DNA from: a virus
Lineage: Duplodnaviria > Caudoviricetes
Direction: 5' to 3' (one strand)
DNA: 64,000 bases
Virus record (IMG/VR): IMGVR_UViG_3300032030_000026
Coordinates: 51,074 to 115,073 of that record
Below the pieces are notes generated by a model. The model saw only the letters and a program-made list of their open reading frames with translations. It was not told the DNA's origin and made no database searches. A program made the translations under genes and the position numbers. Shown here one piece after another: positions 2,025-64,000 of the stretch. Positions within the stretch are counted from its first letter, which is position 1. Each line of letters starts with the position of its first letter.

Positions 2025-5000
2025 TTACACACCATGCACGGTTAAAGCAAATCCGCCGTTTGCCTTTCCGACACAATTACCTAATTTAGTTATTACGGTT
2101 TTTAATGCATTCATTTCGGCTTCTAATTTTTCTAATTTTTCCTTATTAGGATCTTTCTTAGGAACCTGTGGTTTTGATTTAGAAGATCCATCCGTAGGTT
2201 TTGCAAGACCTTCTCTGGATCCTCCTCCGCTACCTAAGCTGGAGAAGTCTTTATTATTCACATCATCTAAAGCGGCGGTAAGTTTTTCCAATGCTTCCAA
2301 CAATTTTTCATTAATTACATCAGCGAGTTTATCAAAATTACCTTGGATGCTATCGGAGAATAAATACAATTCATGCATAAGCTCCTTCAGAGAGGTGACC
2401 TTGGAGATATCTAATGTATTCACGGATTTGATGAGTTTGACGGAGTCGTCGGTGACCTGCTTCCAAGCGGAGGTGCATTGATTTAAGTTAGATCCGTTTA
2501 CATTTTGGAATATAGACTTAGCTATCAGTTCTATGGCATGGCCGGCCGGGGTATCTATCTTGTCTTTTAGGCTCGTGAATTTTATATTTTCATATTTACC
2601 GCAGGTCTCCAGATATTTATCATAAGGGAGGTTCATAAGCAAGCCTAGTGACATGACCTGATCCTTGCTAACATGTCCGGCATCGGAAATGTCCTTCAAG
2701 AACCGGCTTGCCATCCAGGTTATAGTCAGTGTATCTTCGGTTCCGTTATTGATCGTGTGAACGGTTATGTTCTTAGCTTTGATCTGGGTCTTGATCATTT
2801 GGTCGGTAGCCTTGCCCATAAGAATAGTAGACATGAGATAGTTTTTAGTATTATCCAATAATCTATTGACTACATCGGTCTTGAGTTTCTCGTCCATAAC
2901 GGTAACGGTCTTTTCTATCACATTTCCAAGAGCATCCATCTGATCATTAAAATTATCCGGTATTTTCCATTTAGATAACTTAACGGCTCTTTTAGCTATC
3001 TTATTCAAGATACGGAGTATGTTGCTGATAGTATTGACTTTTCGTTTCGTCTGGCGCAATTTTCTACGTTTGACTTTATTCAAAGCAAACACTATACCAC
3101 CTTCTCCATCCCGACCGACGATTGCGAATATCGGAGCGGTGAGCTTATCCGGATTTATCGGGGGCATAGCGGTTACCTGCATAGCTGCTGTGCAGATATC
3201 TTTTATCTTCAAAACAGTTTTAGATATAGAAGCTATCTTCAATGCGGACTTACCCATTTCTACCAGACCTAGCTGATTCAGATAATAGAGTACACTGCCC
3301 TCCTCGTATCCTTTCTTGATACCTAGGAATCCCTTAGCTTCCTTGCCACCATCCGGAGATAGCTGCAATGCACGGAGAGGTATAAGCATTTTCTCCGATA
3401 ACTTTCGGGCTACCTCGGTGGGATCTCCTGTAATACCGGCTGTATCCATAGCCATAGAAGCTTCCGCCAAGGCTTTCATAGCCTGGGCTGCTGTCTGAGC
3501 TATTTTAGAAATAGACCACATAGCAGCCTCCCCCAATAAGAACGCTGCTGCCTGAGGACCTAGAAGCAAGAACCCGGCAATCGCTGCCATGCCCCCAAGT
3601 TCGGCTATAACCAAAGCCATGATCTGAGAGGTTCCCAACAAGTCACCAGCATCGGTCATGGCAGCCACCTCTCCGAGAGATCTAAACGCCGGCATAGCCG
3701 CATTTAATATCAGAGTTATACCACCCAAAGCAGCCTCCCCAATAAGTAAATCTTGTTTAGGTATCTTAGACAGAATAAAAACCATTCCTCCTAATTCCGC
3801 CATAACTAAAGTCATAATTTGAGAGGTTCCCAGCAAATCACCGGCCTCCGTTTCTTTTGACACTTTCCCAATTATACCCATCACAAGTGCGGCCATCCCG
3901 GTTAGTATTATAATTAAAGCCATGGGAATCACCCCCTTTATAATCTCTTTTTCAAATTTTGCCAAACCCCATATCATCAAAGCCATAGCTCCTAATGTAG
4001 TTATCATAACCAACATAGTAAGAGCCACCTGTTTGAGATCTATAGTTTCGGCCAATAATGCCATCAGTGCTAAAGTGGCCACCATACCTAGAATAGCAAG
4101 GTCTATCAACAATAGTGCGGTAGCTCCTTTTTTCAAAAATGCCCCGGCTAAACTTAACAGAGCCATCAGACCTAACATAGTGGCTATAAATGTAAATGTT
4201 ATCCCTATCAAAACCATACCCAACACTATCATAGCTCCCGCGGTGATCATAGCCAGGATAATCAGAACAATTCCGCCTATAGCTCCAATCATGCTAGTGA
4301 TGACCCTATGTGATTTCCGGGACTGTGCCAATCTGGTAGATATTAAAGACATAACTAATATATATCCGCCTATAATTGCCATGATTATGGGCATGGTAGC
4401 CGCGGCCTTCATGGCTTTTTTGGGTTCCGGCATGTTGTTGATAACCTCACAGAAATCTTTCAATGTCTTAGACATATCTTTGAAGAACGTCTGTGCTTTA
4501 GAAGAATTTGCTTCTAAATTTATTTTCTCTATAAATTTCAAAAGAATCCAATACTCTAGTATAATTATCACAGTTATAGGTAAGATAATCATTAAATTTA
4601 ACATCCCTATAACAGACGGTGCATTATCCGAAGCTCTTTTTAATGACACCATAGCTACGCCCATGCCATTAAAGACTATTAAGGCATTGTTGACGTCTTG
4701 ATCCGCTAATTTAGCTTTATTAATCAACCATACCATTCCGGCAAATTCAAAAACGGCCACGGTGGCGGATATTAACACAAAATTCAGATTAATGGTATCC
4801 GCAAATTTTGGAGTATTATCAACTGCTTGTTTTAAAGATACCATAATCATACCCATGTCGTCAAAGACTTTTAGAACATTGTTAATGTCTTGATTAGCAA
4901 TTCCGGCTTTATTGATCAACCATACCATTCCGGCAAATTCGAACACCGCTATAGTAGCGGATACTAACACGAGATTTAAGTTAACGGCATCTTTGAATTT

Positions 5001-6800
5001 CGGTGTATTTGTTATGGCATCATTTAGGGTTTCAGTAAATACGGATATCATTCGCATGCTATTAATAGCAACAGACAGATTATCTTGGAATTCGTTGTTA
5101 CCAATAAGCTTTGTAATTTTTATGATCTTCCGAATAGAAGATTTGCTTAATGATACCACTTCAAGAAATTCCGTCATTTTTTCCACGCTTGCCATTCCTA
5201 AAATCATATTGTTCATCTCGGTAACTAAAATAGATATTGTTCTAGTTACTTCGATAGCGGCATTAATCTTATCGGGATTGTCTTTATCTGTAATAAATCT
5301 AGAGGTTCTCAAAATAGTATTGAAGTTGAATCTCATTATCTTTAATGCAATTAAAGACTTTAGAGCCTGTTTAGTATCTAAATTTAGTAAGGTTCGGAAT
5401 ATATTCACAATTGCATCCGCAATGTTCATAATACATTCAAAACCCTCATGAAATATCGGTTCATTGTCTTTGAAAGCTTGAATTATGGATAAAATAGAAA
5501 CCCGCTCACCCCCGTTTTTAGCATTTCTCCATTGCCCCCATTTAGCACCGGAAAACAATATAGCATATATATGTCCCAACCCTTTCTGGGCTGATTTGAA
5601 CCGCTTCCGTCCAAATAAACCGGTATACATATTTATACTCTTCAATACTATATTGATAGCTTTAAAGAACACTACTAAGGATATGGAAATCGCCGCGGCT
5701 TTCAAAGCATCTATCATAGATAGAGATTCCGTAACTCCCGCAATTATATCCATTGCCCCTTTTTTCTTAATAGTGGACTTATTGAATAAATTCCGTATAT
5801 TCCGGCGTACCCATCCATATTCTTCTCCAAATAAGAGCATCCAAGTTCGAGAAATATTTTCCTGAATCTTGGTTTTTTCTAACCACCCCATATTTTCATT
5901 GATAAAATGCAACGTTTCATTCAAGCTTTCAAATGTCTTAGAGATCATAAGCATATTTATTCGGGCTTTAACGGCGGTAGCCACATTCATATTCCCAATA
6001 TTCTCAATAAGACTCATTATAGAATGAGACCGGCGGAATATTCTATCATATATGCGCCCGAATAGTAATACATATATCTTAGATATGGTTCTTCGATACC
6101 GGAAAATTTGCTTGAAAGTGATCTTATTTTTCAGCACTTCGAAGATTGTCGGAATTAAATTAATAGTATCGGCTATAAATTTTATGCTTACCTTTGCTTT
6201 AGCAAACGGAGCCAATTTTCGATCTCCGATAAATTCTATTAGCCGAATGAGTTTCCGGAACAACATCTTATATTTTATAACAGTAAACCTATATTTTATA
6301 ACATCCCCCAAAGATATCTTTTTCAATGGAGAAGCCACAATCTCTAAGGACTCCATGATGGGTTCCATAGATTTTAAAGAGATTCTGGCTTTAATTATAG
6401 AAATTGGGTTATAATTCCCAAGTTTTTCTACAAACTTAAATAAAGACTTCATACTCTTTCTCAAGAGAATCATCCGAAACTTGTTGCCGATTAAATCTTT
6501 TAATGGAATCTTTCCAACAGTCCCCATTAAGATCTGATACTCATATATAGTATCCGTCATATTCTTCAAATCTTTAGCATTTATAGATACGGCGGAATAT
6601 GCACCGGAGATTCTTTCCAATCCATATAAAACCGCCTCCAGTGCATCCGTAGAACGCTCTATACATTTCTTCAAAGTATTGAAGAATTTCTTATCCATCT
6701 TGTTCTTAACGATAATTCTGTTTATATCATTGACAAGATTGAGTTGCTCTTTATATATTTCGAAAAGGTCTTCGCTATTAGGTATCTTGGTCTCGGCCAT
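2025..6800 (-). CDS. tape-measure-like protein with a central multi-TM region
   Basis: 1591 aa, helical, Ala/Ile/Met-rich, long hydrophobic stretch, internal 64-aa repeat (FEFAGMVWLINKA x2) and AGDLLGTSQIM x2. Confidence 0.55.
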   Translation of the reverse strand: MAETKIPNSEDLFEIYKEQLNLVNDINRIIVKNKMDKKFFNTLKKCIERSTDALEAVLYGLERISGAYSAVSINAKDLKNMTDTIYEYQILMGTVGKIPLKDLIGNKFRMILLRKSMKSLFKFVEKLGNYNPISIIKARISLKSMEPIMESLEIVASPLKKISLGDVIKYRFTVIKYKMLFRKLIRLIEFIGDRKLAPFAKAKVSIKFIADTINLIPTIFEVLKNKITFKQIFRYRRTISKIYVLLFGRIYDRIFRRSHSIMSLIENIGNMNVATAVKARINMLMISKTFESLNETLHFINENMGWLEKTKIQENISRTWMLLFGEEYGWVRRNIRNLFNKSTIKKKGAMDIIAGVTESLSMIDALKAAAISISLVVFFKAINIVLKSINMYTGLFGRKRFKSAQKGLGHIYAILFSGAKWGQWRNAKNGGERVSILSIIQAFKDNEPIFHEGFECIMNIADAIVNIFRTLLNLDTKQALKSLIALKIMRFNFNTILRTSRFITDKDNPDKINAAIEVTRTISILVTEMNNMILGMASVEKMTEFLEVVSLSKSSIRKIIKITKLIGNNEFQDNLSVAINSMRMISVFTETLNDAITNTPKFKDAVNLNLVLVSATIAVFEFAGMVWLINKAGIANQDINNVLKVFDDMGMIMVSLKQAVDNTPKFADTINLNFVLISATVAVFEFAGMVWLINKAKLADQDVNNALIVFNGMGVAMVSLKRASDNAPSVIGMLNLMIILPITVIIILEYWILLKFIEKINLEANSSKAQTFFKDMSKTLKDFCEVINNMPEPKKAMKAAATMPIIMAIIGGYILVMSLISTRLAQSRKSHRVITSMIGAIGGIVLIILAMITAGAMIVLGMVLIGITFTFIATMLGLMALLSLAGAFLKKGATALLLIDLAILGMVATLALMALLAETIDLKQVALTMLVMITTLGAMALMIWGLAKFEKEIIKGVIPMALIIILTGMAALVMGIIGKVSKETEAGDLLGTSQIMTLVMAELGGMVFILSKIPKQDLLIGEAALGGITLILNAAMPAFRSLGEVAAMTDAGDLLGTSQIMALVIAELGGMAAIAGFLLLGPQAAAFLLGEAAMWSISKIAQTAAQAMKALAEASMAMDTAGITGDPTEVARKLSEKMLIPLRALQLSPDGGKEAKGFLGIKKGYEEGSVLYYLNQLGLVEMGKSALKIASISKTVLKIKDICTAAMQVTAMPPINPDKLTAPIFAIVGRDGEGGIVFALNKVKRRKLRQTKRKVNTISNILRILNKIAKRAVKLSKWKIPDNFNDQMDALGNVIEKTVTVMDEKLKTDVVNRLLDNTKNYLMSTILMGKATDQMIKTQIKAKNITVHTINNGTEDTLTITWMASRFLKDISDAGHVSKDQVMSLGLLMNLPYDKYLETCGKYENIKFTSLKDKIDTPAGHAIELIAKSIFQNVNGSNLNQCTSAWKQVTDDSVKLIKSVNTLDISKVTSLKELMHELYLFSDSIQGNFDKLADVINEKLLEALEKLTAALDDVNNKDFSSLGSGGGSREGLAKPTDGSSKSKPQVPKKDPNKEKLEKLEAEMNALKTVITKLGNCVGKANGGFALTVHGV

Positions 6801-10498: not shown

Positions 10499-12649
10499 TT
10501 AGAGTATTTCTAAATCCGGAACTATACAGGGATATATATACTGCCACAAATCATACATAGACATATTATTATTGTTGCGAGCATTTAATATGGCATCATT
10601 ATATGCATATCCATATTTTCCCGTAAATTCAATCCAAATTTTTCTCATATTTTCATATACTTCGCGGGATGTAATGTATGTATTGTTTTTTATTCTCAAG
10701 CATTTATTTTCACACCCAATCTCGTTTAAAAATTCATCCACCAGCGGCTTATGGCCTCCACATGTGTCATCGCGTTCTATGGCACCGGACATAGTAATCA
10801 TCTTGTTTGGAGTCTCAATGATTTTTTCATACAATCCCCTATGGAATTCCGGGGTTGCAAAAAATGAATTAAGAGAATTATTAAGAATATCTAATTTTTC
10901 ATAATCATTACATTCTTTATTATACAGACTCACATCGTACCCCATATTAAACACAATCTGTGGTTGTCCATATGTTTCGCATTCACAAACATCCGGCATC
11001 CATGCAGAACAATAAGATGGATAATAAAATACATTACATAAAAAATTCATATTCCCGTATCTCGATTCACAAACATTAAGGTCCGGATCTCCGCAGATAG
11101 TCAGATCAACATCCGCTGACGGAAGTATATAACCCGAAATCATGTCTTTCTTTCTTTCGGCATACCAAGATATATCAAATGGCTCCCAATGGCATATCAA
11201 ACTAAGCTTCGGGCGGAAAGTCCAGTTTGGTTTCATGCCTTTACTTAATAAAAATTTTTGTTCTTCTACGGATAGTGGCCCTTGTATGTCCGTAAAATAA
11301 TTTATGTTCTGGTTCCAATTCCACCACGTATATCCATCCACACTAGACATATCTAACCCGGCATGACCCCTTTTATATTTATTGTAGTAATAATCCTTGA
11401 TATTCTTAATAATATAGTGATTTATCCATACGGTATCTAATTCACTATCTCTCCATCGGAATGTAATATGGCTCACATTGTTGCCTAAACAGTCCCTAAC
11501 GTTTAATTTCTTTCCGACAGCGGACCATATAGTATGTTCATTCATATCCAAAGCCAGTCCGGATCTGGAAATAGTTTTATACCAGCCATTCATATTTTCC
11601 GGGCGGCAATCTTTCCGGACGTTATTTGATATTGGTTCCGTGCAGTATTCGTATATCGGAACATCTATAGGAGTTACATCCGGATTGGCATGAAAACATC
11701 TCCACTGTAATATATAAGCATCGGTATCGGGAAATCTGCTTAAAAATTCTTTAATATTTATGTAATTTTCACTTTTTATGTTTATAAATTCATCAATATC
11801 TATGAATGCTACCCATTTATATATATTGTCATTGCAAAATGTCTTATATTGTGCAATTTGCTGAGCCTTTTCTCCTCTTGCATTGCGTATTTCAACACGA
11901 GCAAATTTCTTTTCTAGCCAATCATAAGTTTCCGGAGAATCCGCATCGTTGTTGTCATAAATGTAGATTCTATCAAATCCTAAGTTCAGATGCCATCTGC
12001 ACCAGTCTTCCAAATAGTTATTTTCTTGCTTAGCAATGGCGCATATTACAACTTCTTGCGATCTGTTTTCATAATCCTCTATAGACATAGTTAACCCCAG
12101 ATCTTTAGCCATATTATGCCAAGTATCTACGTTTACATCCCATTCCGGAATAGTTCTTTTTAAAAATTTATTGTGATCCGTTTTCCTGATAATAGTAGTA
12201 CCGTGGTCAAAATCATACAAAACATGTATTAGTAAATCATCATGTTCCCCAACTAATTTTAATAAAGCTTTATAGCAATCTCCATTCCACACTCCACCCG
12301 GTACCGGATCATGAGAAGCTACATAGTCGGATGCCGGCCACATATCATGACATAATATAGTCCCCCCAGCATTTAATGACTTTAGAGAATTTATAATATC
12401 TCTATAAACTTGTTCGTGTTGGTGAAGTCCATCTATGAATATTAGATCAAACTTCTGCCGATTTTTTAAAAAGAAATCGTCTGATGTGGTGATCATATTA
12501 GCCTTTGATTGTTCATTAGGGTCGACACCTATTTTAAATTCAGCAATAACATTATCAAAAACATCTCCACGATCAACACCTATCTCTAGATACGATTTGT
12601 AATTATGTTTTTCTATTAAAAAATTTATAAGATCTAATCTATTGTTCAT
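10499..12649 (-). CDS. class I SAM methyltransferase (Methyltransf_24-like) fused to a GT-A glycosyltransferase domain
   Basis: YLEIGV..G and FDLIFIDGLH..GGTILCHD, then ICAIAKQENNYLEDW..WHLNLGFDRIYIYDNN and AFIDIDEF (DxD). Confidence 0.8.
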   Translation of the reverse strand: MNNRLDLINFLIEKHNYKSYLEIGVDRGDVFDNVIAEFKIGVDPNEQSKANMITTSDDFFLKNRQKFDLIFIDGLHQHEQVYRDIINSLKSLNAGGTILCHDMWPASDYVASHDPVPGGVWNGDCYKALLKLVGEHDDLLIHVLYDFDHGTTIIRKTDHNKFLKRTIPEWDVNVDTWHNMAKDLGLTMSIEDYENRSQEVVICAIAKQENNYLEDWCRWHLNLGFDRIYIYDNNDADSPETYDWLEKKFARVEIRNARGEKAQQIAQYKTFCNDNIYKWVAFIDIDEFINIKSENYINIKEFLSRFPDTDAYILQWRCFHANPDVTPIDVPIYEYCTEPISNNVRKDCRPENMNGWYKTISRSGLALDMNEHTIWSAVGKKLNVRDCLGNNVSHITFRWRDSELDTVWINHYIIKNIKDYYYNKYKRGHAGLDMSSVDGYTWWNWNQNINYFTDIQGPLSVEEQKFLLSKGMKPNWTFRPKLSLICHWEPFDISWYAERKKDMISGYILPSADVDLTICGDPDLNVCESRYGNMNFLCNVFYYPSYCSAWMPDVCECETYGQPQIVFNMGYDVSLYNKECNDYEKLDILNNSLNSFFATPEFHRGLYEKIIETPNKMITMSGAIERDDTCGGHKPLVDEFLNEIGCENKCLRIKNNTYITSREVYENMRKIWIEFTGKYGYAYNDAILNARNNNNMSMYDLWQYIYPCIVPDLEIL

Positions 12650-12665
12650 ATTTTATTTTTAATTT

Positions 12666-13472
12666 CTAAATCTCGGGAATCCAAGCATAGGTCCATTTAT
12701 CCTGGAAAAAATACATCCAATTATCAATTTCCGCCCGGTTATCCGTCATATTTATAAACGGAGCAAACCCGTCCTTTTGAGAGATTTCCGAATTATGATA
12801 GCAATAATCAAACCATTTGCAAAATAAAAATCGATTATGCAATAGAATAAATCTAGGATCATGATATGCCATTTTGTATACGGCATATGTAAGAGTTGTT
12901 TGGTTGATGCGGTCAACCTGTCCGTTTTTACCCCATAGAAACATAGTAGTCCAGGTATGATCGTTTATAGCATGTGTGAGTTTAGTGTTCTTATATACAA
13001 TTATGGTACTCTGTAAAAGGCCTTCCGAGCGATATCCGGCATTATCCAAATATTGCTTAACCCTTATAGCATCCTCTTTAGAAAATCCATAATATCCAAA
13101 ATGAGCCCATCGATCTACTTCCGACCGGATATCGTTAACTATAGTGTTTTGCAATGTGCCGTACTCCCAATCTTCCTTTTCAAATTTCTCTAACATCTCG
13201 ATCGGGTCTTTTTTTATTTGTATGGACCCATCTATATATAAACATATATTGGTATTTACGAACTCAAATGGATGATATCGGACATATGCCCAGCGATCCG
13301 GACCTTCCGGATAATCTAAAAGCTGTGAATAATATAATATTTTCCAGGTATCCGATTTCAAATTCGGGTTATCCGTTACCATTATATATTCTATATCCGG
13401 ATTTGGCTCCGATACTTCGCGGACCATTTCATATCCGGCAAATATGCATGACAATATACTATATTTGGGCAT
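12666..13472 (-). CDS. DUF616-like glycosyltransferase
   Basis: SCIFAGYE..YIMVTDN..HPFEF..CLYIDGSI..RINQTTL pattern. Confidence 0.65.
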   Translation of the reverse strand: MPKYSILSCIFAGYEMVREVSEPNPDIEYIMVTDNPNLKSDTWKILYYSQLLDYPEGPDRWAYVRYHPFEFVNTNICLYIDGSIQIKKDPIEMLEKFEKEDWEYGTLQNTIVNDIRSEVDRWAHFGYYGFSKEDAIRVKQYLDNAGYRSEGLLQSTIIVYKNTKLTHAINDHTWTTMFLWGKNGQVDRINQTTLTYAVYKMAYHDPRFILLHNRFLFCKWFDYCYHNSEISQKDGFAPFINMTDNRAEIDNWMYFFQDKWTYAWIPEI

Positions 13473-19012: not shown

Positions 19013-20041
19013 ATGATGACACCGGAAGAAAAAAATATCATATATAAAATCCGGAAAGGAGATATAGATGTGAATAATCAGCAGATATTTCTATCTCTGC
19101 TTATAAAGGGCCTAGTATGGAATCTTAATCAGAAGATAAAAATTCGCGGTATCCCCGTACCACACTTTATCATCAATACCGGTGACGATATTATGTATTT
19201 GGAGGTCAAAGGACAAGATCACTCCATAGAACCATTAGAAGTTTCTAATGAGAATTTTGTTTATAATTCCGTTCCCAGATGCCTAGTCACCCCGGAAGGT
19301 ATAACTATTCCAACCGATGATTTGTCATCTCCATATGCTAACGGCATGTTCCAATACGAAAGTGAGGACAATATATATAGTTATACGGCGGAATTCCGGA
19401 GACTGCCAATGGAGTTATCCGTATCATTAAAATATTATTTTGACTCATATACGGATTCGCTAGAAGGAATCCAACGTCTTCTGACCCATTGTGCTTTTGT
19501 GAATATTTTTGATATTCAGTATTTAGGTCAAACTATTCGCTCGAGTTACCAGATATCCGATCAATATGAAGCTCAATATCAGGTCGAATTTGATGGATTG
19601 AGTCAGGATAACAAATGCCGCGTGGTAGAAATGGATATTACTATAGACACTAACATGCCAATTATATATCCAAAAACCGCTATACTGGGTGATTTATTCA
19701 TCAAAGAAGGAGCACATCTGCTTAGTATACCCGGAGATAATATACAGGCTAGACAGTTCGCCTGCTATTCTTGCAATAATTATAAGAGAACCGGAGAGAG
19801 CGGATCTTATTTATGTCCGGCGTATTTGGTATATCGGAGACTTAAAGTACAAAACAATGAAATTACTCAAAAACAATCCGACTGGGCTCAAGAAAATAAT
19901 GCCGAAGTAGATTTTATAAAAAACAAACCGGATATTCCCACTTCTAAAGATGTTATTGATGATCTGAATCTAGCTAATAATCCCAATATTGATGATTTAT
20001 TTGAAGATGGTTGCCCGGAATACAGTCCAATCGGAGGATAA
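19013..20041 (+). CDS. T4 gp15-like tail terminator with a C-terminal fibre-type extension
   Basis: VPR..(gap)..LPMELSVSLKYYFDSYTDSLEGIQRLL resembles the gp15 core; tail has QSDW..FIKNKP and NIDDLF. Confidence 0.55.
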   Translation: MMTPEEKNIIYKIRKGDIDVNNQQIFLSLLIKGLVWNLNQKIKIRGIPVPHFIINTGDDIMYLEVKGQDHSIEPLEVSNENFVYNSVPRCLVTPEGITIPTDDLSSPYANGMFQYESEDNIYSYTAEFRRLPMELSVSLKYYFDSYTDSLEGIQRLLTHCAFVNIFDIQYLGQTIRSSYQISDQYEAQYQVEFDGLSQDNKCRVVEMDITIDTNMPIIYPKTAILGDLFIKEGAHLLSIPGDNIQARQFACYSCNNYKRTGESGSYLCPAYLVYRRLKVQNNEITQKQSDWAQENNAEVDFIKNKPDIPTSKDVIDDLNLANNPNIDDLFEDGCPEYSPIGG

Positions 20042-20057
20042 ATGAATTCACACCGAC

Positions 20058-20384
20058 ATGCCTATTACATTTTTACAAAAGATAGTAGGATTATCTAATC
20101 CAAATGGGACTCCCGTTATAAGGAGAGGTTCCGAAATTATATTACAGGGTCAAGAAGACATGACTATAAGACGGGGGCTGGAAATTACCGATACCGACAC
20201 CCCTATTATAACTTCCATGATTCAATCCGGCTATTTTAAACAAGAACAAGCCGACTGGAATCAAGAAGATAATGTTAAAGTTGATTATATTAAGAACAAA
20301 CCGGATATTTTAACACCGGATGAACTTATAGATCAATTAGAAAAAGCGTCCGATATTGATATTGATAATTTATTTGGATTTTAA
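20058..20384 (+). CDS. small fibre-module protein
   Basis: QADWNQEDNVKVDYIKNKP repeat and C-terminal ASDIDIDNLF. Confidence 0.65.
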   Translation: MPITFLQKIVGLSNPNGTPVIRRGSEIILQGQEDMTIRRGLEITDTDTPIITSMIQSGYFKQEQADWNQEDNVKVDYIKNKPDILTPDELIDQLEKASDIDIDNLFGF

Positions 20385-34988: not shown

Positions 34989-37900
34989 ATGGCCGAAATT
35001 AGAGATTTTTTAGCCGATATGACGGTCCCAACCCTATCTTCGCAGAATTTTGCGACAGATTTCGAAGAATTTTGTAAAGCGGTAAGGGATAACATAAATA
35101 AAATAGTAAGTGCTCCGTTTCTCAAAGGAGATCGAGGTAGTCGAGTAAGAATTAAAAATGAATATTTAAAACTTCAAGTAGACGCGGATGGAGCCCCCGT
35201 ACCGCCCGGAGAAATCGGAGATCATGAAGAGTGGTCCGATTTTGCCAAAAGCTTGATTTGTGCTATATACGGCACTCATCCCGGAACTATAAATCCGGAT
35301 CTGCCATTGCCATTAGTAGATATAGATTCAAATCATCCAAATGGCCTTATAACTCCGGATGATTCCGACTGGGAGAATATGATTATGATAGATGGCGGAT
35401 ATGTAACTCCGGCGGGGCTTGGATATGAATTTGAATCTTTCGGAGATTCGGCCGGAACTATGCCGTATGGGAATGGTAAAGTAAAGATAATTTCAGCCAC
35501 TGACACCAGTACGACCGTGCGTGTTGTTGAAAATAGTGAACCCGGCTGGGTTGGGAGAGAGTTTGTAATCAGCGCTACCGAAGATAATTTTGATCGGAGC
35601 GAGTATTATCAAATTATGGAAAATGGCATGGCGGTCGATGTGTGGGTAAAAATTGGAGATAAGATATATTTGCCGAATGATGGTGAAGACGATCCGGAAC
35701 TGTTCTTCTCTTATGATATATTTAATGATTTAGAATATATCCCGGTATGCTATGATGAAGATTCCGGTAAGAAGTTCTTATGTGTACCGTTTTATTTCTT
35801 CGATGGCAGGCTTAATTATGTCGGATATATGGATTGGACCCTTTCTCTATTTCGGGATATGTCCGTTACCGTATTTGGAGAGGCTGATTTTATGGGCGAC
35901 CCAACTAGAGAAGATATTGAAAATCCAAATTGCTGGAATTGGATTATGAATACTACCAATGCTCTGCCTAAACTATATTATAATACGGAACTTGATCAAT
36001 TTTGTTGGGAAATTGCCGGGGAACAAACCAATATCATCGCACAAGGGTTAAAAGGCGACAAAGGAGATTCCGCTAATATTTGGTTATGCGGAGGAGAAGT
36101 TACCGGCGGCGTTGCCGAAGAGATTATTACAATTAACAGGATATTAGCACCCTACGATGGCATGCCGATTTCTAATATACAAACCGGGGATTTAATTATA
36201 GCGGTATATGACGACAGCACCGGACATGAAGAGCCCGGAGAAAATCCTCCATACCGCCGCGTTCAATTCGGTATTGCTCACGTTTCAGGCCCGCAATGCT
36301 ATATTGATTATAAATATGATTGCGAAATTATACACAAACTTCGAAATTATAGCTTGCATGATTATCTAAGAAGTATCGGTGTAGAGCCGAATGGCGATAA
36401 TGCTAGCGGAGGATTAATCACCGCATTATATTCATTAGAAAGAGGAATGCGAACCAATGCTATGGCTATGTGGGCTAGCCAATGGAATCCGAACCTCGGC
36501 GATAATGGTGGATGGAATGATAATCAGCATTTCATAGCGCCTATATCATTAGCGAAAACGTCCGGCGATCTGATGAATACCGATAAGAACACTTTGCCTA
36601 ACAAAATATTAAATATTCTATATGATACAGTTGTTTTCAAAAAAACAATACAGGCTGATAATATTGTCACTAACAACGGCATAACTACTAATGCTGTCAG
36701 CACTTTGCAAACACCGATTACCGGAAACTATCTGAAAGAATATCGATTGGGTGTATTATGTAATATTTTATCAGCCCGAAAGTCCGATAATCCGATTACT
36801 GGCAGGATGGGAGAGGGTAATATTATTAGTACTGATGATCTTGATACGCTTTCCGGTACCGGCTCGACAGTAAGATCAACGGGGGAATTTCTATATATAG
36901 AAAGTGAATTGGTTGTGGGCTGGATACCATCCCTTATTGCGGATATATTCCATGAGAACTTAAGCGATAATCGAAACAACCCGACGCTGGACATATATCG
37001 TGCCCAAAAATATCATCTTTATGTTAGAGTGCCGGTGTTAGGTAGTATTGGTAAGGCTAGAATTTCATTAGACGGCCGTTCTTGGAGCCAGACTATATAT
37101 TTGAATACGACATCCGGCACATCCGCTAATGCCGCATCTTCATTATCACATAAGGGCTCGGGAAGAAATATGACTATATCTATTGATGAGAATATGAAGT
37201 TCGAGGAATTTACAAAGTGGCAAAATAAATCAACCATTGATTCTTGGTTTGCAAGTCATGACATATATTCGCAAATCCGCCTTACCGGATATAAATATAC
37301 ACACAATAATCAAACCTCCCTTGAGTTTTTCTACGAATTTGCAACACCCAAAGGATTTTTGCGTAAAGATAAAATCAAATATAAGGCGGATAGTGGAGAA
37401 AACCGATACTATTTCTATCTAAATCAATTTAGATTATTAGATGGAAGTTTGAAGATGTCCGCTAGTGGGGGCTTTAATATAGATAACTTATTCTGGTTTG
37501 GATCACGCAATATAACAACCGTGTTTGCCGATAGACAAGACACTACTCCGGAATCCTTGAAGTGGCCGCTTACGGATGATGGATATTCGTTCTTGAATTA
37601 TTTTAAATCAGGACAGAATAATTATATTCGTACAACAAACGATGAAGGTAATTATATGTGGCAAGGCCGCATTTTAAGTGCTAATCCTAAAGGTAATACG
37701 ACTTCCGGTAAAAAACAAGATCTTTATTATATCAACACATCGTTTTATGAAACTCTTTACCCATCCGACTTCTTTACATTCATTGTTAAAAATCCGGATA
37801 ATGATACCTATAATGATTCTATAAGACATATTTCTAAAGTACCCATAAATTCAGCAATACATATTTATCCGGAAGGAATATGCGGTTTAGCATACGATCG

Positions 37901-38009
37901 CGTTATAACTAATAGCAATAATTCCGCATGGAATCCGGATGTCGTGGATCCTGCGGCAGCTACAATCGGAGCATATGTACCGGCGGAGTATCAAAGTCTC
38001 CAATTATAA
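34989..38009 (+). CDS. putative virion structural/fibre-associated protein
   Basis: 1006 aa; KGDRG/KGDKGD hinges; contains an ~80-aa domain shared with 59692..61332. Confidence 0.55.
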   Translation: MAEIRDFLADMTVPTLSSQNFATDFEEFCKAVRDNINKIVSAPFLKGDRGSRVRIKNEYLKLQVDADGAPVPPGEIGDHEEWSDFAKSLICAIYGTHPGTINPDLPLPLVDIDSNHPNGLITPDDSDWENMIMIDGGYVTPAGLGYEFESFGDSAGTMPYGNGKVKIISATDTSTTVRVVENSEPGWVGREFVISATEDNFDRSEYYQIMENGMAVDVWVKIGDKIYLPNDGEDDPELFFSYDIFNDLEYIPVCYDEDSGKKFLCVPFYFFDGRLNYVGYMDWTLSLFRDMSVTVFGEADFMGDPTREDIENPNCWNWIMNTTNALPKLYYNTELDQFCWEIAGEQTNIIAQGLKGDKGDSANIWLCGGEVTGGVAEEIITINRILAPYDGMPISNIQTGDLIIAVYDDSTGHEEPGENPPYRRVQFGIAHVSGPQCYIDYKYDCEIIHKLRNYSLHDYLRSIGVEPNGDNASGGLITALYSLERGMRTNAMAMWASQWNPNLGDNGGWNDNQHFIAPISLAKTSGDLMNTDKNTLPNKILNILYDTVVFKKTIQADNIVTNNGITTNAVSTLQTPITGNYLKEYRLGVLCNILSARKSDNPITGRMGEGNIISTDDLDTLSGTGSTVRSTGEFLYIESELVVGWIPSLIADIFHENLSDNRNNPTLDIYRAQKYHLYVRVPVLGSIGKARISLDGRSWSQTIYLNTTSGTSANAASSLSHKGSGRNMTISIDENMKFEEFTKWQNKSTIDSWFASHDIYSQIRLTGYKYTHNNQTSLEFFYEFATPKGFLRKDKIKYKADSGENRYYFYLNQFRLLDGSLKMSASGGFNIDNLFWFGSRNITTVFADRQDTTPESLKWPLTDDGYSFLNYFKSGQNNYIRTTNDEGNYMWQGRILSANPKGNTTSGKKQDLYYINTSFYETLYPSDFFTFIVKNPDNDTYNDSIRHISKVPINSAIHIYPEGICGLAYDRVITNSNNSAWNPDVVDPAAATIGAYVPAEYQSLQL

Positions 38010-53988: not shown

Positions 53989-54612
53989 ATGGTCACTATA
54001 GGAATAGACCCATCCATCAATTCCACCGGAGTGTGCGTCCGAACACCGGACACTTATAAATATTATATTATATGTTCTAAGATGTCCGGTAAGATGAAAT
54101 CCTTTGTACACAATAGGATACACCTTATAAATTACAATAAAATTCCGGTCACCGGACTAGAATATCCCGATAAGGAATATGTAAAATCGGAGAATATTTA
54201 TAAAATCATCGGAGCTGTTGGAGAAATAATTGACTATTACTTACAGGATATTCATTTAAAATCCAATAAGTTATACACCGGAATCTCCGATGAGTCCGAT
54301 AAAAGTTCCGATAAAAGTTCCGATAAAATTATAGTAAATATGGAAGGCATTAGTTATGGTAGTGTGGGAAGTGCGGCATTGGCGGACTTAGCCGGTTTAA
54401 ATTTTGCTATTCGGATGCTTTTATTAAGTAAAGGTGTGAAATTTCAAATAATATCACCAATATCACTTAAAGTATTTGCCACCAGCAATGCCGGAGCCTC
54501 TAAAGAAGAAATGTCCTGGGCTTGGAAGTTATTAGATCCGGAAATGAAAGATATAGATAAAATAAAAATAGACGACCTTGCGGACGCCTATTTTCTATCT
54601 CGTTATGAATAG
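53989..54612 (+). CDS. ruvC: RuvC-like Holliday junction resolvase
   Basis: IGIDPSINSTG, MEG.SYG, P.SLK.FAT..G.ASKEEM, DDLADAY. Confidence 0.85.
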   Translation: MVTIGIDPSINSTGVCVRTPDTYKYYIICSKMSGKMKSFVHNRIHLINYNKIPVTGLEYPDKEYVKSENIYKIIGAVGEIIDYYLQDIHLKSNKLYTGISDESDKSSDKSSDKIIVNMEGISYGSVGSAALADLAGLNFAIRMLLLSKGVKFQIISPISLKVFATSNAGASKEEMSWAWKLLDPEMKDIDKIKIDDLADAYFLSRYE

Positions 54613-55915: not shown

Positions 55916-56050
55916 ATTATAAACATTGCTATTTTCATAAAAAATAAAACAAAAACCCGGTTTATAGGTTAGAGAATTTAATCCATACTTTAGTGTATGT
56001 GCATAATACGGCAGATAAACTATCTTGTATATTAATTTGTTTTGACACCC

Positions 56051-57901
56051 CTAATCTCTTAATATATAAACTTTTCCATCTGTGAATAAACTAGTAGGGT
56101 CACCGGATGCTTGCCATGAACCGCTAATTTTTTGATAAACTCTTGTTGCTTCTACATACACACCATTCACTTTCACATATACTTTTCTTTGAGATAATTC
56201 TTTTATGACAATTATATGAGATTCCGTGACATTAGAAAGAGTGTATGTGTATGGTGAATTGCTCCCAGACAATTGCGATTTGACGCTTGTCCCGTTGTCT
56301 GTCACATCTACAGCTGACAGATCGCTGATACTCAAGCTGAAAGACTGGTCGTGCCCCTCCCAAACAGAGACCGATGCCGGAGAGATCGTGTCTCCGCTTG
56401 ATTGAGAAGATGCTGTCACTTGATATTGCGGACGAGTCTCAAATCTCACAGTCTTTGTCTTGTCAGCTACAGCAGTGTACGCATAGTATACGTCGCTCTT
56501 GTACTCGTACTCAATGATCAAATCCGCGCCATAGAAATAGACCATTCTGTTAGCCGCTCCAGCTCTTCCTGTTATCTTCAGTCTTGCTGAGCTGAGCTCT
56601 TCTCTAGTGAATCCGTCAATATTTGCCAGATCATATACCGCAGCGCTAGTTTTGTCGTACCAGTCTCTGTTCCTGTCACTTTTTGATGTTGTACCCGAGT
56701 AAAGCTGGATTCCAGTGTCGGCAGTAGAGAAAGTGTTGCTTACGCATATCTTTGCTCTGCAGCTTACTGACAGTATCACAGCATCTTGCGGAACAGATGA
56801 GACATCGAAGTTATAGTATATAGATTGTGTAGAATTACGAGTGCCAACTTGAAGCGTCACTTTTGTGGTGCTGCTAGTGTCAGTGTATCCATTTGAGAAA
56901 TTCCCTGTTCCAGAACCATTGTACGTGTTGTCAGAGTATGACCCAGGAACAAGTGTGGACGTAGTCTCATCTATCTTTTCTTTTAGCTCCCAAGCATTGT
57001 TCTTCACATCATCATCAAAGATGTTGATGTGGTCTATCTCATTCGTGTTTATCCTGATCTCGACATCTTGACCAAGACCAGCTTTGACTGTTGTCCCGCT
57101 TGAAGGAACAGTTGAGCTTATAAGCGAAGAATTGTTAGTGACAGTGATATATACAGCTGGAACATCTTTCACCACGACAGTGTGGTCTGCACTGATGTCA
57201 TCTATCACATAAAGATACGTGGTCCCAGAATCATGGACAAGACGATTTGTCACATTGTCCCCGTTGTCTTCTACAGCTATCTCTGACACATTCGTGATAT
57301 TAAGGAATCTCACTGTTGCAGATTCTCCTTTAGAAGCTTCTTGTGTGCTGGGGCTCACAGTGACACTTTCGGATTGAGAAGATGCATTGACCGTGTATAT
57401 GTATTCATCATAAGAGTAATTGACAGTTAGATCAGATCCATAGAAATATACATTTCTATTACTACTTCTTCTTGCGTAGATCCTGAGTTGAAGGTCTTCT
57501 ATCTCTTCTCTTGTCCAACTACCAGTGTCAGAGAATGTTCGTACATCAATATCAGTGTTGTTCGTGAAATCTATTGCACTTCCTTTAGCAGAGTCTCCAT
57601 AGTACAACTGGATAGTGCTAGAAGTCATACCATTAGAATTTGTGCATCGTATCTTTACATCGCACTTAATAGAATCTATGACAGCCTCATCTGGTATCTC
57701 ATTGAATCCACCAAATCCGAATACAGGTCCACCTATTCCGCTTGAAGCAGGATTGTAATTGCAATACGTGGAAGAATTGGCTGAGGTGAATGCGTTCTCA
57801 GCTGGATAGGAAGTTGATATAGAACCAACAGTTCCAATAAATCTTATGAATTCTGACGGAATTCTTTGAACTTTAAGTCCAGTGTGATGTACTACTCTCA
57901 T
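56051..57901 (-). CDS. fibre tip/adhesin with a duplicated beta-sandwich and Ig-like repeats
   Basis: two copies of P.DAVI.S..C....IQLY.G....TREE..L.I..VYFYG.DL; Ser/Thr-rich; C-terminal VYVKVNG....VY.K.SG.W. Confidence 0.7.
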   Translation of the reverse strand: MRVVHHTGLKVQRIPSEFIRFIGTVGSISTSYPAENAFTSANSSTYCNYNPASSGIGGPVFGFGGFNEIPDEAVIDSIKCDVKIRCTNSNGMTSSTIQLYYGDSAKGSAIDFTNNTDIDVRTFSDTGSWTREEIEDLQLRIYARRSSNRNVYFYGSDLTVNYSYDEYIYTVNASSQSESVTVSPSTQEASKGESATVRFLNITNVSEIAVEDNGDNVTNRLVHDSGTTYLYVIDDISADHTVVVKDVPAVYITVTNNSSLISSTVPSSGTTVKAGLGQDVEIRINTNEIDHINIFDDDVKNNAWELKEKIDETTSTLVPGSYSDNTYNGSGTGNFSNGYTDTSSTTKVTLQVGTRNSTQSIYYNFDVSSVPQDAVILSVSCRAKICVSNTFSTADTGIQLYSGTTSKSDRNRDWYDKTSAAVYDLANIDGFTREELSSARLKITGRAGAANRMVYFYGADLIIEYEYKSDVYYAYTAVADKTKTVRFETRPQYQVTASSQSSGDTISPASVSVWEGHDQSFSLSISDLSAVDVTDNGTSVKSQLSGSNSPYTYTLSNVTESHIIVIKELSQRKVYVKVNGVYVEATRVYQKISGSWQASGDPTSLFTDGKVYILRD

Positions 57902-57903
57902 GA

Positions 57904-58302
57904 CTATTGTTGTATGTATATGTCTCCATCGATTCCTTGAGAGTTATTAGGAGCACTATTTCCTATATAGATAGATACCGGTGTGACTAATGTCCAAGTG
58001 CCATTCACGACTTGAAGGATTTTGTTATTATCAGACGAGGAAACCGTAGGCAATTCCTGTACCACGATATTCGCCGTGGCATTCTGCGATGCATTGGCGG
58101 TAAATGTAGCCACATTTGACCCATTTTTCTGAATTGTGAGCGTGGCATTGTTTATCGTGGGAATAGTCGGCTTATCATCCAGGTCGTTATAAGAGCCGGA
58201 TGTGGCGACCGGAGCCAGTGCTTCTTGAAGGGCTTCGAACGCCACATTTATCCAATCTCTAAATCTGGTCAGATTTTCTAAAGATATAAATTTAGACTTC
58301 AT
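57904..58302 (-). CDS. fibre adaptor module
   Basis: KFISLENLTRF N-terminus, SGSYNDL.DKP, NATLTIQKNG..TFTAN, C-terminal GNSAP...G.DGDIYIQ. Confidence 0.7.
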   Translation of the reverse strand: MKSKFISLENLTRFRDWINVAFEALQEALAPVATSGSYNDLDDKPTIPTINNATLTIQKNGSNVATFTANASQNATANIVVQELPTVSSSDNNKILQVVNGTWTLVTPVSIYIGNSAPNNSQGIDGDIYIQQ

Positions 58303-58335
58303 AGACCAAATAAATAAGATTTATTTGCGGCTTTT

Positions 58336-59646
58336 TTAGCTACCGGACTGGGTAGTGAACAGAGCATCGATGTCTGTTTGAGATGCTACAATTAGTTGTG
58401 CTTTTTGGCTAACTATAGCAGCATCTATTGAAGAATCCGTATTTCCGGTTACAACGGAAATGCCGACCATAGATTCTTCAATGTTTATTGTAGTGTTTGA
58501 ACTCTGGTTAGCTGTGAACGTTCCGACTTGTGCGCCGTTTTTCTGAACAGTTAAAGTACCATCATTGGCGGACACGGTATTAGCATTTTTCCAAACGCGG
58601 TTAGTGGCATCCCACATTAAGACCTGGCCATCGGCTACATTGGTTATGGTGACATTATTAAGACCCTCCAAAGGAATGGTCAGAGTAATATCACCATTAG
58701 CATCGGCGGAAGCTTTAGTACCGCCATTGACAGTTACACCAATACCGGCAAGTTTGGTTTTTTCAGCCGTAGTGTAATTATTGTCGGTGTGTACATAGTT
58801 AGTATCTTGCACGAGGTTTTGTGGCTTATTAGCGATATAAGCATCGGATGTATTATCAGCTTCATTCCAGTCGGCTTGTACGTTCACCTCGGCTCCAGCT
58901 TCGATGTTAAATAATTTTGTTTTCTCGTCAGCTGTAATAAATTTGTTTGCAGAATTGGTATCATCTACCAAATCGGCATCCAGCTTATGGTCTTCATCAA
59001 TTTCGGACTGCAGACCGGAAACCAGAGCAGCAACACTAAATCTAACTGTACTACCATTTTTTAAAGTCAGGACAACTTCCTTTGTGGTAGAATCATAAGC
59101 ACCATTAACAACCACACTCTCTAATGGGAGGTCAATAGTTTGTGCCGTTCCTAAATTATTCCCATCCTGGTCTTTCAACTGCAAGGTAACTACGTAGTCC
59201 GCCGATGTTCCCTGATCATTGATCGACAATGACACACCCGCACCATATTTTGTGGTATCCGGAAGAGCATTAACTTCCGAAGCAGTAGTAGGCACGGAAA
59301 TGTCGACCTCAACATCATCGTCAGCATTAGCGGTAAATGTACCTACGGAAGTACTATTTCTCTTAATAGTCAAGGTAGCATTGTTTACCGTAGGAATCTC
59401 GGGCTTATTTAATATCATAGCATCGCCGGAAGTGGCATTCCAGTCGGCCTGTACGTTCACTTCGGCACCCTCTGCAATACCGGCTAATTTTTCTTTTTCC
59501 GCGGTAGTATAGTCATTAGTAGAAAGATCCTTTCCGGTTACTTTTTTGACATACGTCGCCTCGGCGTGTTGCATTTTTTCATATAGCTCATCTAATTTAT
59601 CTTTAAATCTAGAAAGATTACTAAGGGTTATGAATTTATCGATCAT
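58336..59646 (-). CDS. fibre shaft protein (head/collar-fibre type repeats)
   Basis: LSTNDYTTAEK.KL.GI, AEVNVQADWN, TLT..NG..GTFTAN repeats; N-terminal KFITLSNLSRF, C-terminal ASQTDIDALF. Confidence 0.75.
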   Translation of the reverse strand: MIDKFITLSNLSRFKDKLDELYEKMQHAEATYVKKVTGKDLSTNDYTTAEKEKLAGIAEGAEVNVQADWNATSGDAMILNKPEIPTVNNATLTIKRNSTSVGTFTANADDDVEVDISVPTTASEVNALPDTTKYGAGVSLSINDQGTSADYVVTLQLKDQDGNNLGTAQTIDLPLESVVVNGAYDSTTKEVVLTLKNGSTVRFSVAALVSGLQSEIDEDHKLDADLVDDTNSANKFITADEKTKLFNIEAGAEVNVQADWNEADNTSDAYIANKPQNLVQDTNYVHTDNNYTTAEKTKLAGIGVTVNGGTKASADANGDITLTIPLEGLNNVTITNVADGQVLMWDATNRVWKNANTVSANDGTLTVQKNGAQVGTFTANQSSNTTINIEESMVGISVVTGNTDSSIDAAIVSQKAQLIVASQTDIDALFTTQSGS

Positions 59647-59691
59647 AATAAAAATTTTTATTAAATAATATTGATTAAATTCAAAATCTGG

Positions 59692-61332
59692 TTATATATG
59701 TAATTGAGTCATTTTAACAAACAATCCGGTTTCCGAATCATTCACATTTAACAGAGAAATAAGGCTCGGAGTTATATCACTAACCGGACTGCTTACTTTA
59801 AAATATTCGCCGGTATGACTATTATCCGAGCTATCGGATATAACTTTAATTATAGTATATATATTAGTATCATCCACAACTTCCATTACTCCGGATCCGT
59901 ATTGTTCGGTTTCATCTTGATTCCAGGATGTGAATTCATATAATATATAATCTGGCTTGTATACTCTCTGTCCGGTATTCCGACCGTTTACAAACCAAAA
60001 CTCCACCGGTCCTTCATTAGGCATAACTATGCTCCGGACATAAGGTATATTAGTTCTATAATTTTTAAACATCGCCAGATGATCCTTCATAAGCTGATAA
60101 TTTTCGGATTGCAATCTCATATCAGTCCGAATATCTGCAATGGCATCGGCAATCCGACCCATGGCTCCGGCTACGGTTTCATAATCGTCTCCGCCGTCTA
60201 CCACCATAGCATATGTTGATGAATTTGGGGTGGCCACAACTCGTGTCATCAGTCTCACGGACCAACCGGTACCTTGTCCGAAAATATCTTCGTTAGATAC
60301 ATATTTGGTGACTTGATTACGAAACGGTATAGACCCGGAGGTATCTTGATTCCCGGTATCAAAATATTCCATATTAATAGGTCCGGTAAAATATATGCCA
60401 AGCGGTCTGTTATAATGCAAACATATCGGACCATCCTCTAGGTCTAAATCATTATATATATCATAGAATACAATTACGCAATTAAAAGAAAATTCTTTAT
60501 TTTCACCTATAACTTCTCCATTTTTCCGAGATTCCACAATATGAGAAGCGGAAGAATTATTCATAATAGGATATTTTTTTCCGGATAAATTATAAAATCC
60601 GTTTTCGGAACGAGGTTTTTCGTCAATTCCGCCATTATTAATAGGGTACGCCGCTTTTGTCCACCCCATTATTACTTGGCTATAATCATAATGATCCGGA
60701 TCTCCGGGATTTCCATGACTTAATGCAAAACTACTTATAGACCCATCTTTTCCTATAAAACCACTTATATCTGCCAATTCATAAGCCATTTCATTATCGG
60801 ACGGAGATATATAACAATATATATCATTATAATTCATACCATCGGCTTGCCGATTTGAATGAATATTGATATCACCAATGAATTTAAGCTCCTTAAATGT
60901 ATCATAAGATCCATCTAGTGTAGTCACGGATGTCCTGCCAATCAATCCCCAATCTTCTAATGACTTCCATAACAGCTGGGTGGCATATCCATCATTAAGA
61001 TTATCTTCATCCCAATACATCTCTTTATTGGTTACGTCATAACCCAAGATTTCCTTAGCCAAGCATACGGAATTTTCATAATAGGATTGAAGGTATTGAG
61101 AGAGATATCTATTTAAGTTTTGGTCTTGATAAGGATCTTCTTCCGAACCTTCATGCTCGGACATATATGTTTTAAAATTATCAATATTTAATTCTAACAC
61201 GGCAAATCTGGACGGCACTACACGATAAGATCCTTTTGCAGCATCTTCTTTAGTCAGATCATCCGTATATTGGGAGAACATGAAAAATTCTCCAGTATCA
61301 TTAGATAAAGGCTTAAAAATGTTACATCTCAT
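59692..61332 (-). CDS. putative virion (baseplate-type) structural protein
   Basis: probable start ATG 61332; C-terminal ~80-aa domain shared with 34989..38009. Confidence 0.55.
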
Positions 61333-61437
61333 AATATTGACTATAATATATTTCAAATAATACTTTTTCGACATAAGATAAATTCATATAATCTTGATTT
61401 TATCTCCTATTATTTCATTAGTATAAATTTATACATA

Positions 61438-64000
<2,563 letters not shown>

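Follow-up and report, generated by a model that had tools for sequence, protein, structure and literature searches.

A putative fibre cassette with a probable split fibre-tip joint in a phage contig

How are the successive parts of a phage fibre joined when each is encoded by its own gene, and on which virion protein does such a fibre stand? These questions are raised by a group of genes at positions 55916-59927 of a 64,000-nucleotide stretch of DNA (hereafter the window; positions 51,074 to 115,073 of the IMG/VR record IMGVR_UViG_3300032030_000026), which forms the end of a 115-kb viral contig with an estimated completeness of 57%. The genome encodes a T4-type portal (PF07230, E 7e-68) and a 1106-amino-acid structural protein with distant kin in Lak megaphages, Sphingomonas phage PAU and Tenacibaculum/Chryseobacterium phages; the contig is therefore part of the genome of a large myophage, and the distant kinship suggests that its host is probably a gut or rumen bacterium of the Bacteroidota. 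A reading of the letters alone (the sequence-only reading) had proposed here a chain of anchor, self-extending shaft, adaptor and interchangeable tip, built by complementary terminal peptides and anchored on a tail terminator encoded 38 kb away. The main outcome of the present analysis concerns the joint between adaptor and tip, which very probably consists of a short terminal segment of the adaptor (the dock) and tandem β-hairpins of the tip. The genes concerned are the following.

56051..57901, minus strand: tip, 616 amino acids; a jelly-roll, two immunoglobulin-like domains, a second jelly-roll, an immunoglobulin-like domain and two C-terminal β-hairpins (residues 575-598; VYVKVNGVYVEA, RVYQKISGSWQA) in the predicted model.
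57904..58302, minus strand: adaptor, 132 amino acids; N-terminus MKSKFISLENLTRF, SGSYNDLDDKP and TLTIQKNG repeats, C-terminal dock module ..KILQVVNGTWTLVTPVSIYIGNSAPNNSQGIDGDIYIQQ-COOH.
58336..59646, minus strand: shaft, 436 amino acids; N-terminus MIDKFITLSNLSRF, two QADW..NKP repeats and EKxKL repeats, C-terminus ..SSIDAAIVSQKAQLIVASQTDIDALFTTQSGS.
59692..59952, minus strand: 3' part of a gene (59692-61374) for a 560-amino-acid protein; an 87-amino-acid C-terminal extension, KPDYILYEF...MTQLHI, within the inserted cassette.

The probable junction between adaptor and tip

The tip gene starts 2 nt past the stop codon of the adaptor gene. The adaptor ends in GNSAPNNSQGIDGDIYIQQ, with P....G.DGD.Y lying within about 5 residues of the C-terminus (..SAPNNSQGIDGDIYIQQ), and the tip ends in two hairpins, its motif KVYVKVNGVYVEATRVYQKISGSWQ being followed by 21 further residues. 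In these two ends the sequence-only reading had seen the halves of one fibre junction. At loci that contain a homologue of the tip, the gene directly upstream ended in ..P....G..GDIY[IL]Q.. and a stop codon in L035, L036, L037/38, L039, L040, L041, L043 and L044, and the fibres encoded by these upstream genes had unrelated N-termini and lengths of 306-1383 amino acids. At the loci fetched with the adaptor, every dock-ended open reading frame (ORF; L019, L031 and L032) was followed by a hairpin-bearing protein. The dock module recurred, with 67-88% identity, as the very last part of fibres having at least eight unrelated N-termini. In the metagenome loci that were fetched, 16 ORFs other than the adaptor itself contained the half-motif, and every one of them ended within 3-8 residues of this motif. 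When IMG/VR was scanned without bias for the heptapeptide DGDIYIQ, 87 stretches were returned, 80 of which were read; about 43 of the 80 had the P....G context together with a stop codon no more than 5 residues downstream. By eye, the next ORF contained tandem hairpins in 21-24 of the 31 evaluable cases. With a strict regular expression, hairpins were found in 13 of 32 partners versus 8 of 519 other ORFs (Fisher p 9e-13).

The position of the hairpin module within the partner protein was variable. It is C-terminal in the tip family, N-terminal and right after the stop codon of the dock in L040 (3676-4947), L036 (12229-), L156 and L168, and internal in tips that carry an extra C-terminal domain (L039, L159); tips ending in ..ITEFTIS, which had been considered to lack the module, were found to contain it internally. 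Such variable placement would be expected if the element is portable and serves for docking. The two halves also varied together in two subfamilies: docks ending in IQQ, IQTS or IQE were accompanied by hairpins ending in W[VQ]EQxD, and docks of the form TGGxDGDIYIQ[YI] by hairpins ending in WK[KR]G. Finally, unsplit forms were encountered. In the minor tail protein of Streptomyces phage phiScoe25 (OQ672746.1), APSASQGIDGDWYF is followed after 20 residues by TIYQKVAGAWTVVG, so that one chain holds both half-motifs in unchanged order with about 20 residues between them, right after collagen-like triplets; this AP....G.DGD.Y...Y.K..G.W segment differs from the arrangement in the window in being undivided and in its place close to the N-terminus of a long protein. 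L153 likewise contains a contiguous form, GSDGDIYIQDGATLAFWKKTSGSWV. A tblastn search of 50,697 isolated-phage records with the dock module and with the partner protein of L137 gave no close relative.

Because of the terminal position of the dock, the co-variation of the subfamilies and the existence of contiguous single-chain forms, these data indicate that one β-structure has been fissioned into two polypeptides that would reassemble by physical complementation. The suggestion of two halves of one junction is thus borne out in phages that are otherwise unrelated, in which adjacency and terminal position are conserved. Two observations weigh against it: L042 is the sole tip-homologue locus that has no fibre gene upstream, and about a quarter of the dock-ended ORFs had no recognisable hairpin partner.

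The latter observation would also suit a different explanation, in which the motifs are the product of mosaic exchange of generic fibre segments, the hairpins are a folding or trimerisation element of the tip itself, and the adjacency of the genes reflects operon organization with no contact between dock and hairpins. Foldon-type hairpins, as in T4 fibritin, are trimerisation elements, and several repeats of the cassette are indeed generic: in a HMMER search of 1.84 billion representatives QxDW..NKP was found in hundreds of long fibre proteins with up to 18 copies per protein, and SGSYNDL.NKP, EKxKL and TLTIQKNG were likewise repeats shared by hundreds of fibres. However, mosaic exchange does not account for a dock half-motif that is nearly always located no more than 5 residues from a stop codon, nor for a hairpin half that falls in the next gene at whichever end. 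It also leaves aside the co-varying subfamilies and the single chains in which both halves are united, and the model of the tip, which resembles a monomeric string of jelly-roll and immunoglobulin-like domains, does not have the fold of a trimeric fibre. We consider this explanation improbable.

The AlphaFold2 model of the tip had a predicted local distance difference test score (pLDDT) of 92.9, with lower values (72-83) for the hairpins. Foldseek matched it to tandem CBM51 domains, Bacteroides SGBP-B, MAM-type ectodomains and other bead-on-string adhesins with E-values of 1e-5 to 3e-4; the template modelling scores were low (0.1-0.24), owing to the many domains in the model, and there was no match in Pfam. 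Among 111 homologues the C-terminal tandem xYxKxNGxW hairpins were kept in most, and W596 and K577/K591 were invariant or nearly so. By its appearance the tip is a glycan-binding arm of monomeric type rather than a trimeric fibre, and we propose that its hairpins are the docking module of a predicted glycan-binding adhesin. A single-protein search of the IMG/VR loci returned no relatives of the tip. That the tip is interchangeable, as had been suggested, is supported by its 86% identity between phages that differ in fibre N-termini and gene context, and by the presence of two tip paralogues at some loci. These paralogues, of 222-930 amino acids, follow one dock-ended fibre in L035 (5001-9662), L036 (4306-7793), L043 (1037-5292) and L044 (2576-6822), and each of them ends in tandem hairpins. 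This suggests that one fibre end may carry several different arms.

Genes for tail-fibre assembly chaperones typically follow fibre genes, and their products bind to fibre C-termini, as do Tfa of Mu and P2 and, in some phages, gp38 of T4. The position of the 616-amino-acid protein behind the adaptor gene would therefore also fit a chaperone that acts on the adaptor or fibre tip and is not a stable component of the virion. Its 616 residues, six confidently predicted β-domains and folds resembling carbohydrate-binding modules, as well as the tandem paralogues of up to 930 residues, point instead to the architecture of adhesins and not to that of the small Tfa chaperones, and a chaperone function is considered highly improbable.

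Shaft and adaptor as probable parts of one fibre

Residues 1-81 of the adaptor are homologous to the N-terminus of the shaft (residues 1-119). The loci with the closest relatives of the tip (L041, L043 and L044, 85-86% identity) encode one fibre of 442-493 amino acids each. In L041 and L044 the middle of this single chain matched residues 117-318 of the shaft at 49% identity and its end matched residues 33-132 of the adaptor at 56%, and the 493-amino-acid fibre of L044 corresponds to shaft 117-318 and adaptor 33-132 joined in a single chain. The split form is kept in L045 and L046, where the order is the 560-amino-acid protein, shaft and adaptor and both terminal motifs are present. Because relatives encode both as one polypeptide, shaft and adaptor are likely to be the split form of one fibre and to act in series. 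The self-extension of the shaft that had been proposed is much less credible: only the presence of both terminal motifs on the shaft hints at self-association, and polymerization of the shaft on itself is judged very improbable.

The shaft relatives P0113-P0115 have kept both termini. P0113, the shaft variant of L046, and P0114, a protein of 429 amino acids from an ENA contig, run on past DIDAL(F). The C-terminal end of P0113 contains the same GTQ triplets as a collagen-like protein encoded at 61438-63999 of the window. In P0114 the divergence sets in immediately behind DIDAL, with a coiled coil (NGQINGLRNQLNGLQGDL..) and a further C-terminal segment, and is either a natural module swap or an assembly chimera. 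Between the shaft and adaptor genes, AAATAAATCTTATTTATTTGGTCTATG is conserved (window 58303-58335 versus L046 2906-2938) despite divergence of the coding sequence, and may serve as a promoter or in the initiation of translation. Searches of Pfam and PHROGs with shaft, adaptor, tip, 560-amino-acid protein, terminator and p108 (see below) gave nothing useful, and no meaningful match resulted when the PDB sequences were searched by phmmer with adaptor, tip, shaft, 560-amino-acid protein and the phiScoe25 segment.

Candidate anchors of the fibre

The attachment site of the fibre may be indicated by motifs that recur 38 kb away in two adjacent genes.

19013..20041, plus strand: tail terminator, 342 amino acids; predicted gp15-like core (residues 1-245) and a C-terminal tail with an insertion of about 50 amino acids, ITQKQSDWAQENNAEVDFIKNKPDIPTSKDVIDDLNLANNPNIDDLF.
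20058..20384, plus strand: p108; a small N-terminal domain followed by a module like the insertion of the terminator, EQADWNQEDNVKVDYIKNKPDILTPDELIDQLEKASDIDIDNLFGF.

The 342-amino-acid protein had been labelled gp15-like, correctly so. Its AlphaFold2 model (49 homologues) had a pLDDT above 90 across most of residues 1-245 and a C-terminal tail of low confidence, and the best Foldseek matches of the core were 9mkb (the T4 portal-neck-tail complex), 8jan (phage P1) and 4huh/4hud (T4 gp15), with probability 1.0 and E from 4e-7 to 3e-4. By its predicted fold it is a tail terminator of the T4 gp15 type. The C-terminal tails are hypervariable across the family. In the window the tail contains the insertion (ITQKQSDW..NKPDIP..VIDDLNLANNPNIDDLF) just ahead of the conserved end DGCPEY, and this insertion is missing from the 80%-identical terminator of L048/G001 and from 13 other relatives. 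The relatives in IMG/VR were found via an alignment of close homologues; a single-protein search of the IMG/VR loci returned none. Over about 46 aligned residues the module of p108 is roughly 50% identical to the insertion, by eye. None of 14 related loci has a p108-type gene between the terminator and a 230-amino-acid gene, and a full-length homologue of p108 was found neither in IMG/VR nor in the JGI (Joint Genome Institute) metagenomes, where the matches were of the generic QxDW..NKP type and none had IDxLF or KFI.

All motifs were found where the sequence-only reading had placed them. NIDDLF lies 17 residues from the C-terminus of the terminator, DIDNLF 2 residues from that of p108 and DIDALF 6 residues from that of the shaft. 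The six-frame ORFs of the whole 115-kb contig contain four occurrences of ID.LF, of which three lie within 20 residues of a C-terminus and the fourth is internal, in 34989-38009, and KF[IVL][TS]L.NL is confined to the N-termini of shaft and adaptor. From composition, 0.035 proteins with ID.LF in the last 20 residues were expected and 3 were observed (Poisson 7e-6), a number reached in none of 2000 shuffles; for KFI[TS]LxNL about 4e-4 occurrences were expected in the proteome and 2 observed. The motifs were defined after inspection of the sequence, which makes the p-values for both optimistic. The pattern is not due to chance. Q[AS]DW..NKP occurs four times, twice in the shaft and once each in the terminator and p108. 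These repeats had been said to link the two loci: they are present at both, yet do not by themselves establish a link, as they are generic, and the HMMER matches of the terminator to the repeat-bearing fibre proteins came through residues 284-330 alone.

The link is favoured on other grounds. G001 (IMGVR_UViG_3300032030_000028, 110 kb) is collinear with the genome studied here (G000), with 60-96% amino acid identity. DNA homology between the two is broken between window positions 55916 and 59927 by an insertion of about 4.0 kb that contains tip, adaptor, shaft and the 87-amino-acid extension of the 560-amino-acid protein. G001 lacks all of these as well as the terminator insertion and p108, of which it has no homologue; its version of the 560-amino-acid protein ends in ...GQRVYPI. 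In the shared span, 14 of about 104 ORFs differ between the genomes. As related modules at both loci are jointly present or jointly absent, this supports a functional link over 38 kb and favours the idea of a terminator-associated fibre. The co-presence of terminator insertion, p108 and cassette is an indirect clue to attachment at the neck, and the chance that the fibre is anchored at the neck or terminator is put at slightly below even. Direct contact of IDxLF with the KFI N-terminus is somewhat more doubtful.

Several points weigh against such an anchor. Two DNA-pattern scans of IMG/VR gave 0 matches to the KFI N-terminus, and the motif thus appears restricted to this lineage; therefore, the co-occurrence of IDxLF and KFI is seen in one presence/absence pair (G000 and G001, the latter only 49% complete) and in the short contigs L045 and L046. 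The sequence that follows DIDAL(F) in P0113 and P0114 fits a cap at the end of a domain as well as it fits a socket. Moreover, binding of KFI to every IDxLF cap would leave the length of the shaft uncontrolled and would allow adaptors to bypass it. The 87-amino-acid extension of the 560-amino-acid protein is a rival candidate and may be the real anchor.

That rival is serious because the extension is encoded within the 4-kb indel, just ahead of the shaft gene, and comes first in gene order. Fibre operons are usually ordered from proximal to distal, and L045 and L046 preserve the order of 560-amino-acid protein with extension, shaft and adaptor. The anchor could then be the extension or another baseplate or head site, to which the shaft and the adaptor-tip unit would bind through KFI, side by side or in series, with IDxLF as the end of a trimer-capping domain and the terminator insertion plus p108 forming a separate, short whisker stub. 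A shared N-terminal module usually means a shared attachment site, which agrees with the homology between the first 81 residues of the adaptor and the shaft, and the segments after DIDAL(F) in P0113 and P0114 agree with a capping role. However, this explanation leaves unexplained why an ending of the type ID.L..A..DIDxLF is carried by terminator, p108 and shaft and only in the phage that bears the cassette, and how a split shaft and adaptor reproduce the single-chain fibre of the relatives. In addition, the 560-amino-acid protein had no match in Pfam, PHROGs or the PDB sequences (phmmer) and no usable match in the ESM Atlas that points to a function or location. We regard it as a minority possibility that deserves attention.

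Two candidates for relatives of the motifs were discarded. DDINSLF in the terminator homologue P0138 aligns elsewhere. The loose C-terminal motif [ST]..[DE][IV]D.[LM]F is also present in unrelated proteins, and in L014, an unrelated siphophage-like tail locus of high GC (guanine plus cytosine) content, a protein of 204 amino acids (5177-5791) ends in ..MSDTDVDAMFIQGETL (loose-motif end SDTDVDAMFIQGETL-stop) and the overlapping next gene (5788-6330) encodes a fibre that starts with MSEFRKFVGLRIS and has the dock-like end ..GQDGDIWLQHWS. This pair is suggestive, could be due to chance and is too weak to serve as evidence.

Some other genes of the window are noteworthy. The collagen-like gene at 61438-63999 (plus strand) is divergent from the 560-amino-acid gene and runs off the contig end; its product, of more than 854 amino acids, has hundreds of G-X-Y triplets (GTQGTQG, GEKGEKG) behind an N-terminal domain of about 100 amino acids that is 82% identical in G001. 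A protein of 1591 amino acids (2025-6800, minus strand) shares only 42% identity with its counterpart in G001, against 78-92% for the neighbouring proteins; it appears to be a hypervariable large structural protein and is possibly the main determinant of host range. Beside the tail module lie a gene for a fusion of methyltransferase and glycosyltransferase (GT2/GT92; 10499-12649, minus strand) and a second, weakly glycosyltransferase-like gene (12666-13472, minus strand). A protein that by eye resembles RuvC (53989-54612, plus strand) contains an internal SDKSSDKSSDK repeat, and its homologues flank the fibre genes in the window, G001 and L041.

Proposed assembly and known systems

The assembly that we favour combines these parts, and as a whole it has about an even chance of being right. 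The inserted segment would be an accessory fibre cassette, read on the minus strand in the order extension, shaft, adaptor and tip. The extended segment P....G.DGDIYIQQ-COOH at the end of the adaptor would be the opening half of a motif that other phage fibres contain in unbroken form; the C-terminus of the tip would add the missing tandem hairpins (xYxKxNGxW, twice), and the tip would be held by fragment complementation. The tip itself would be a monomeric bead-on-string arm with two jelly-roll domains resembling carbohydrate-binding modules, and a trimeric fibre end could bear up to three exchangeable arms. Further down, an N-terminal helix of the type KFIxLxNLxRF may dock on a helical C-terminal cap, ..ID.L..A..DIDxLF, both between shaft and adaptor and between shaft and virion. 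Shaft, p108 and the insertion in the terminator tail all bear this cap, and the fibre, read in this way, would be a neck fibre that stands on a stub made of the terminator tails and p108. In a linear chain of this kind every terminal motif is paired. A broader version, in which the terminator ring with its fibre-repeat/IDxLF insertion and p108 is the socket, in which the fibre is put together wholly by a helical IDxLF/KFI joint and a split, foldon-like dock/hairpin joint, and in which the latter joint is a widespread, hitherto undescribed plug-and-play standard for the exchange of receptor-binding arms among uncultivated phages of several types, is considered unlikely, though far from negligible.

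In the dock and hairpins we see a resemblance to the foldon segment ..APRDGQAYVRKDGEWV.., in pattern only, which serves as a lead and not as a test. The foldon is one contiguous chain and forms a homotrimer. T4 fibritin (wac) is comparable in that it forms neck-associated fibres; it binds gp13/gp14, not gp15. No fibritin was retrieved by phmmer with the adaptor among the PDB sequences.

For the general design a published precedent exists, by analogy, in the neck fibre of the Anabaena myophage A-1(L), in which gp82 is the anchor, about 14 gp81 trimers are placed head to tail and gp80 is distal (PMC10966104). Like the fibre proposed here it is a multi-protein neck fibre encoded in one operon, in which an anchor is followed by serial units that are joined end to end non-covalently and by a distinct distal unit. 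Its globular trimer units are joined by N-terminal β-hairpins, and it is anchored on the neck protein gp5, a pentadecamer (PMC10966104), whereas the anchor proposed here is the tail terminator; the likeness is one of design, and no kinship to gp80-82 is claimed. In the long tail fibre of T4 (gp34-gp35-gp36-gp37, with the gp38 adhesin in T2/S16-type phages; PMC3004832, PMC12032242) consecutive genes also encode consecutive segments that are joined end to end, and the tips are exchangeable. This fibre is attached to the baseplate (gp9) and has no detectable sequence similarity to the one described here. The gp38 of T2/S16-type phages is, like the proposed tip, a separate, monomeric and modular adhesin on the C-terminal tip of a fibre, and it sets the host range. 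It binds by its N-terminal domain, whereas the tip would bind by C-terminal (in some cases N-terminal) tandem hairpins that complete the motif of the fibre end. A different mounting is seen in the whiskers of Bas63, the collar of which is placed on adaptor and head-completion proteins (PMC12609058). In the literature searched, coverage of which was incomplete, no description of a terminator-borne socket or of a split dock/hairpin joint was found, and a full-text search with the motif strings and 'strand complementation' in fibres yielded nothing relevant.

Multi-protein fibres and detachable adhesins were thus already known, and their joining partners have usually been found only by cryo-electron microscopy. 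What the present analysis adds is a rule for fibre-tip pairs that can be read from sequence, namely P....G.DGDIYIQ-stop followed by a gene with tandem xYxKxNGxW hairpins, and that spans many uncultivated phages differing in gene organization and GC content. If the plug-and-play reading is true, the pairing of fibres and receptor-binding proteins would be predictable from sequence alone, and if the terminator is indeed the anchor, this would add its C-terminal tail to the attachment sites described for neck fibres or whiskers, such as gp5 in A-1(L) and the collar in Bas63. If confirmed, the joint would improve the annotation of receptor-binding proteins in metagenomic phages, account for the movement of tips between lineages and provide a natural split-protein joint for studies of host recognition by phages.

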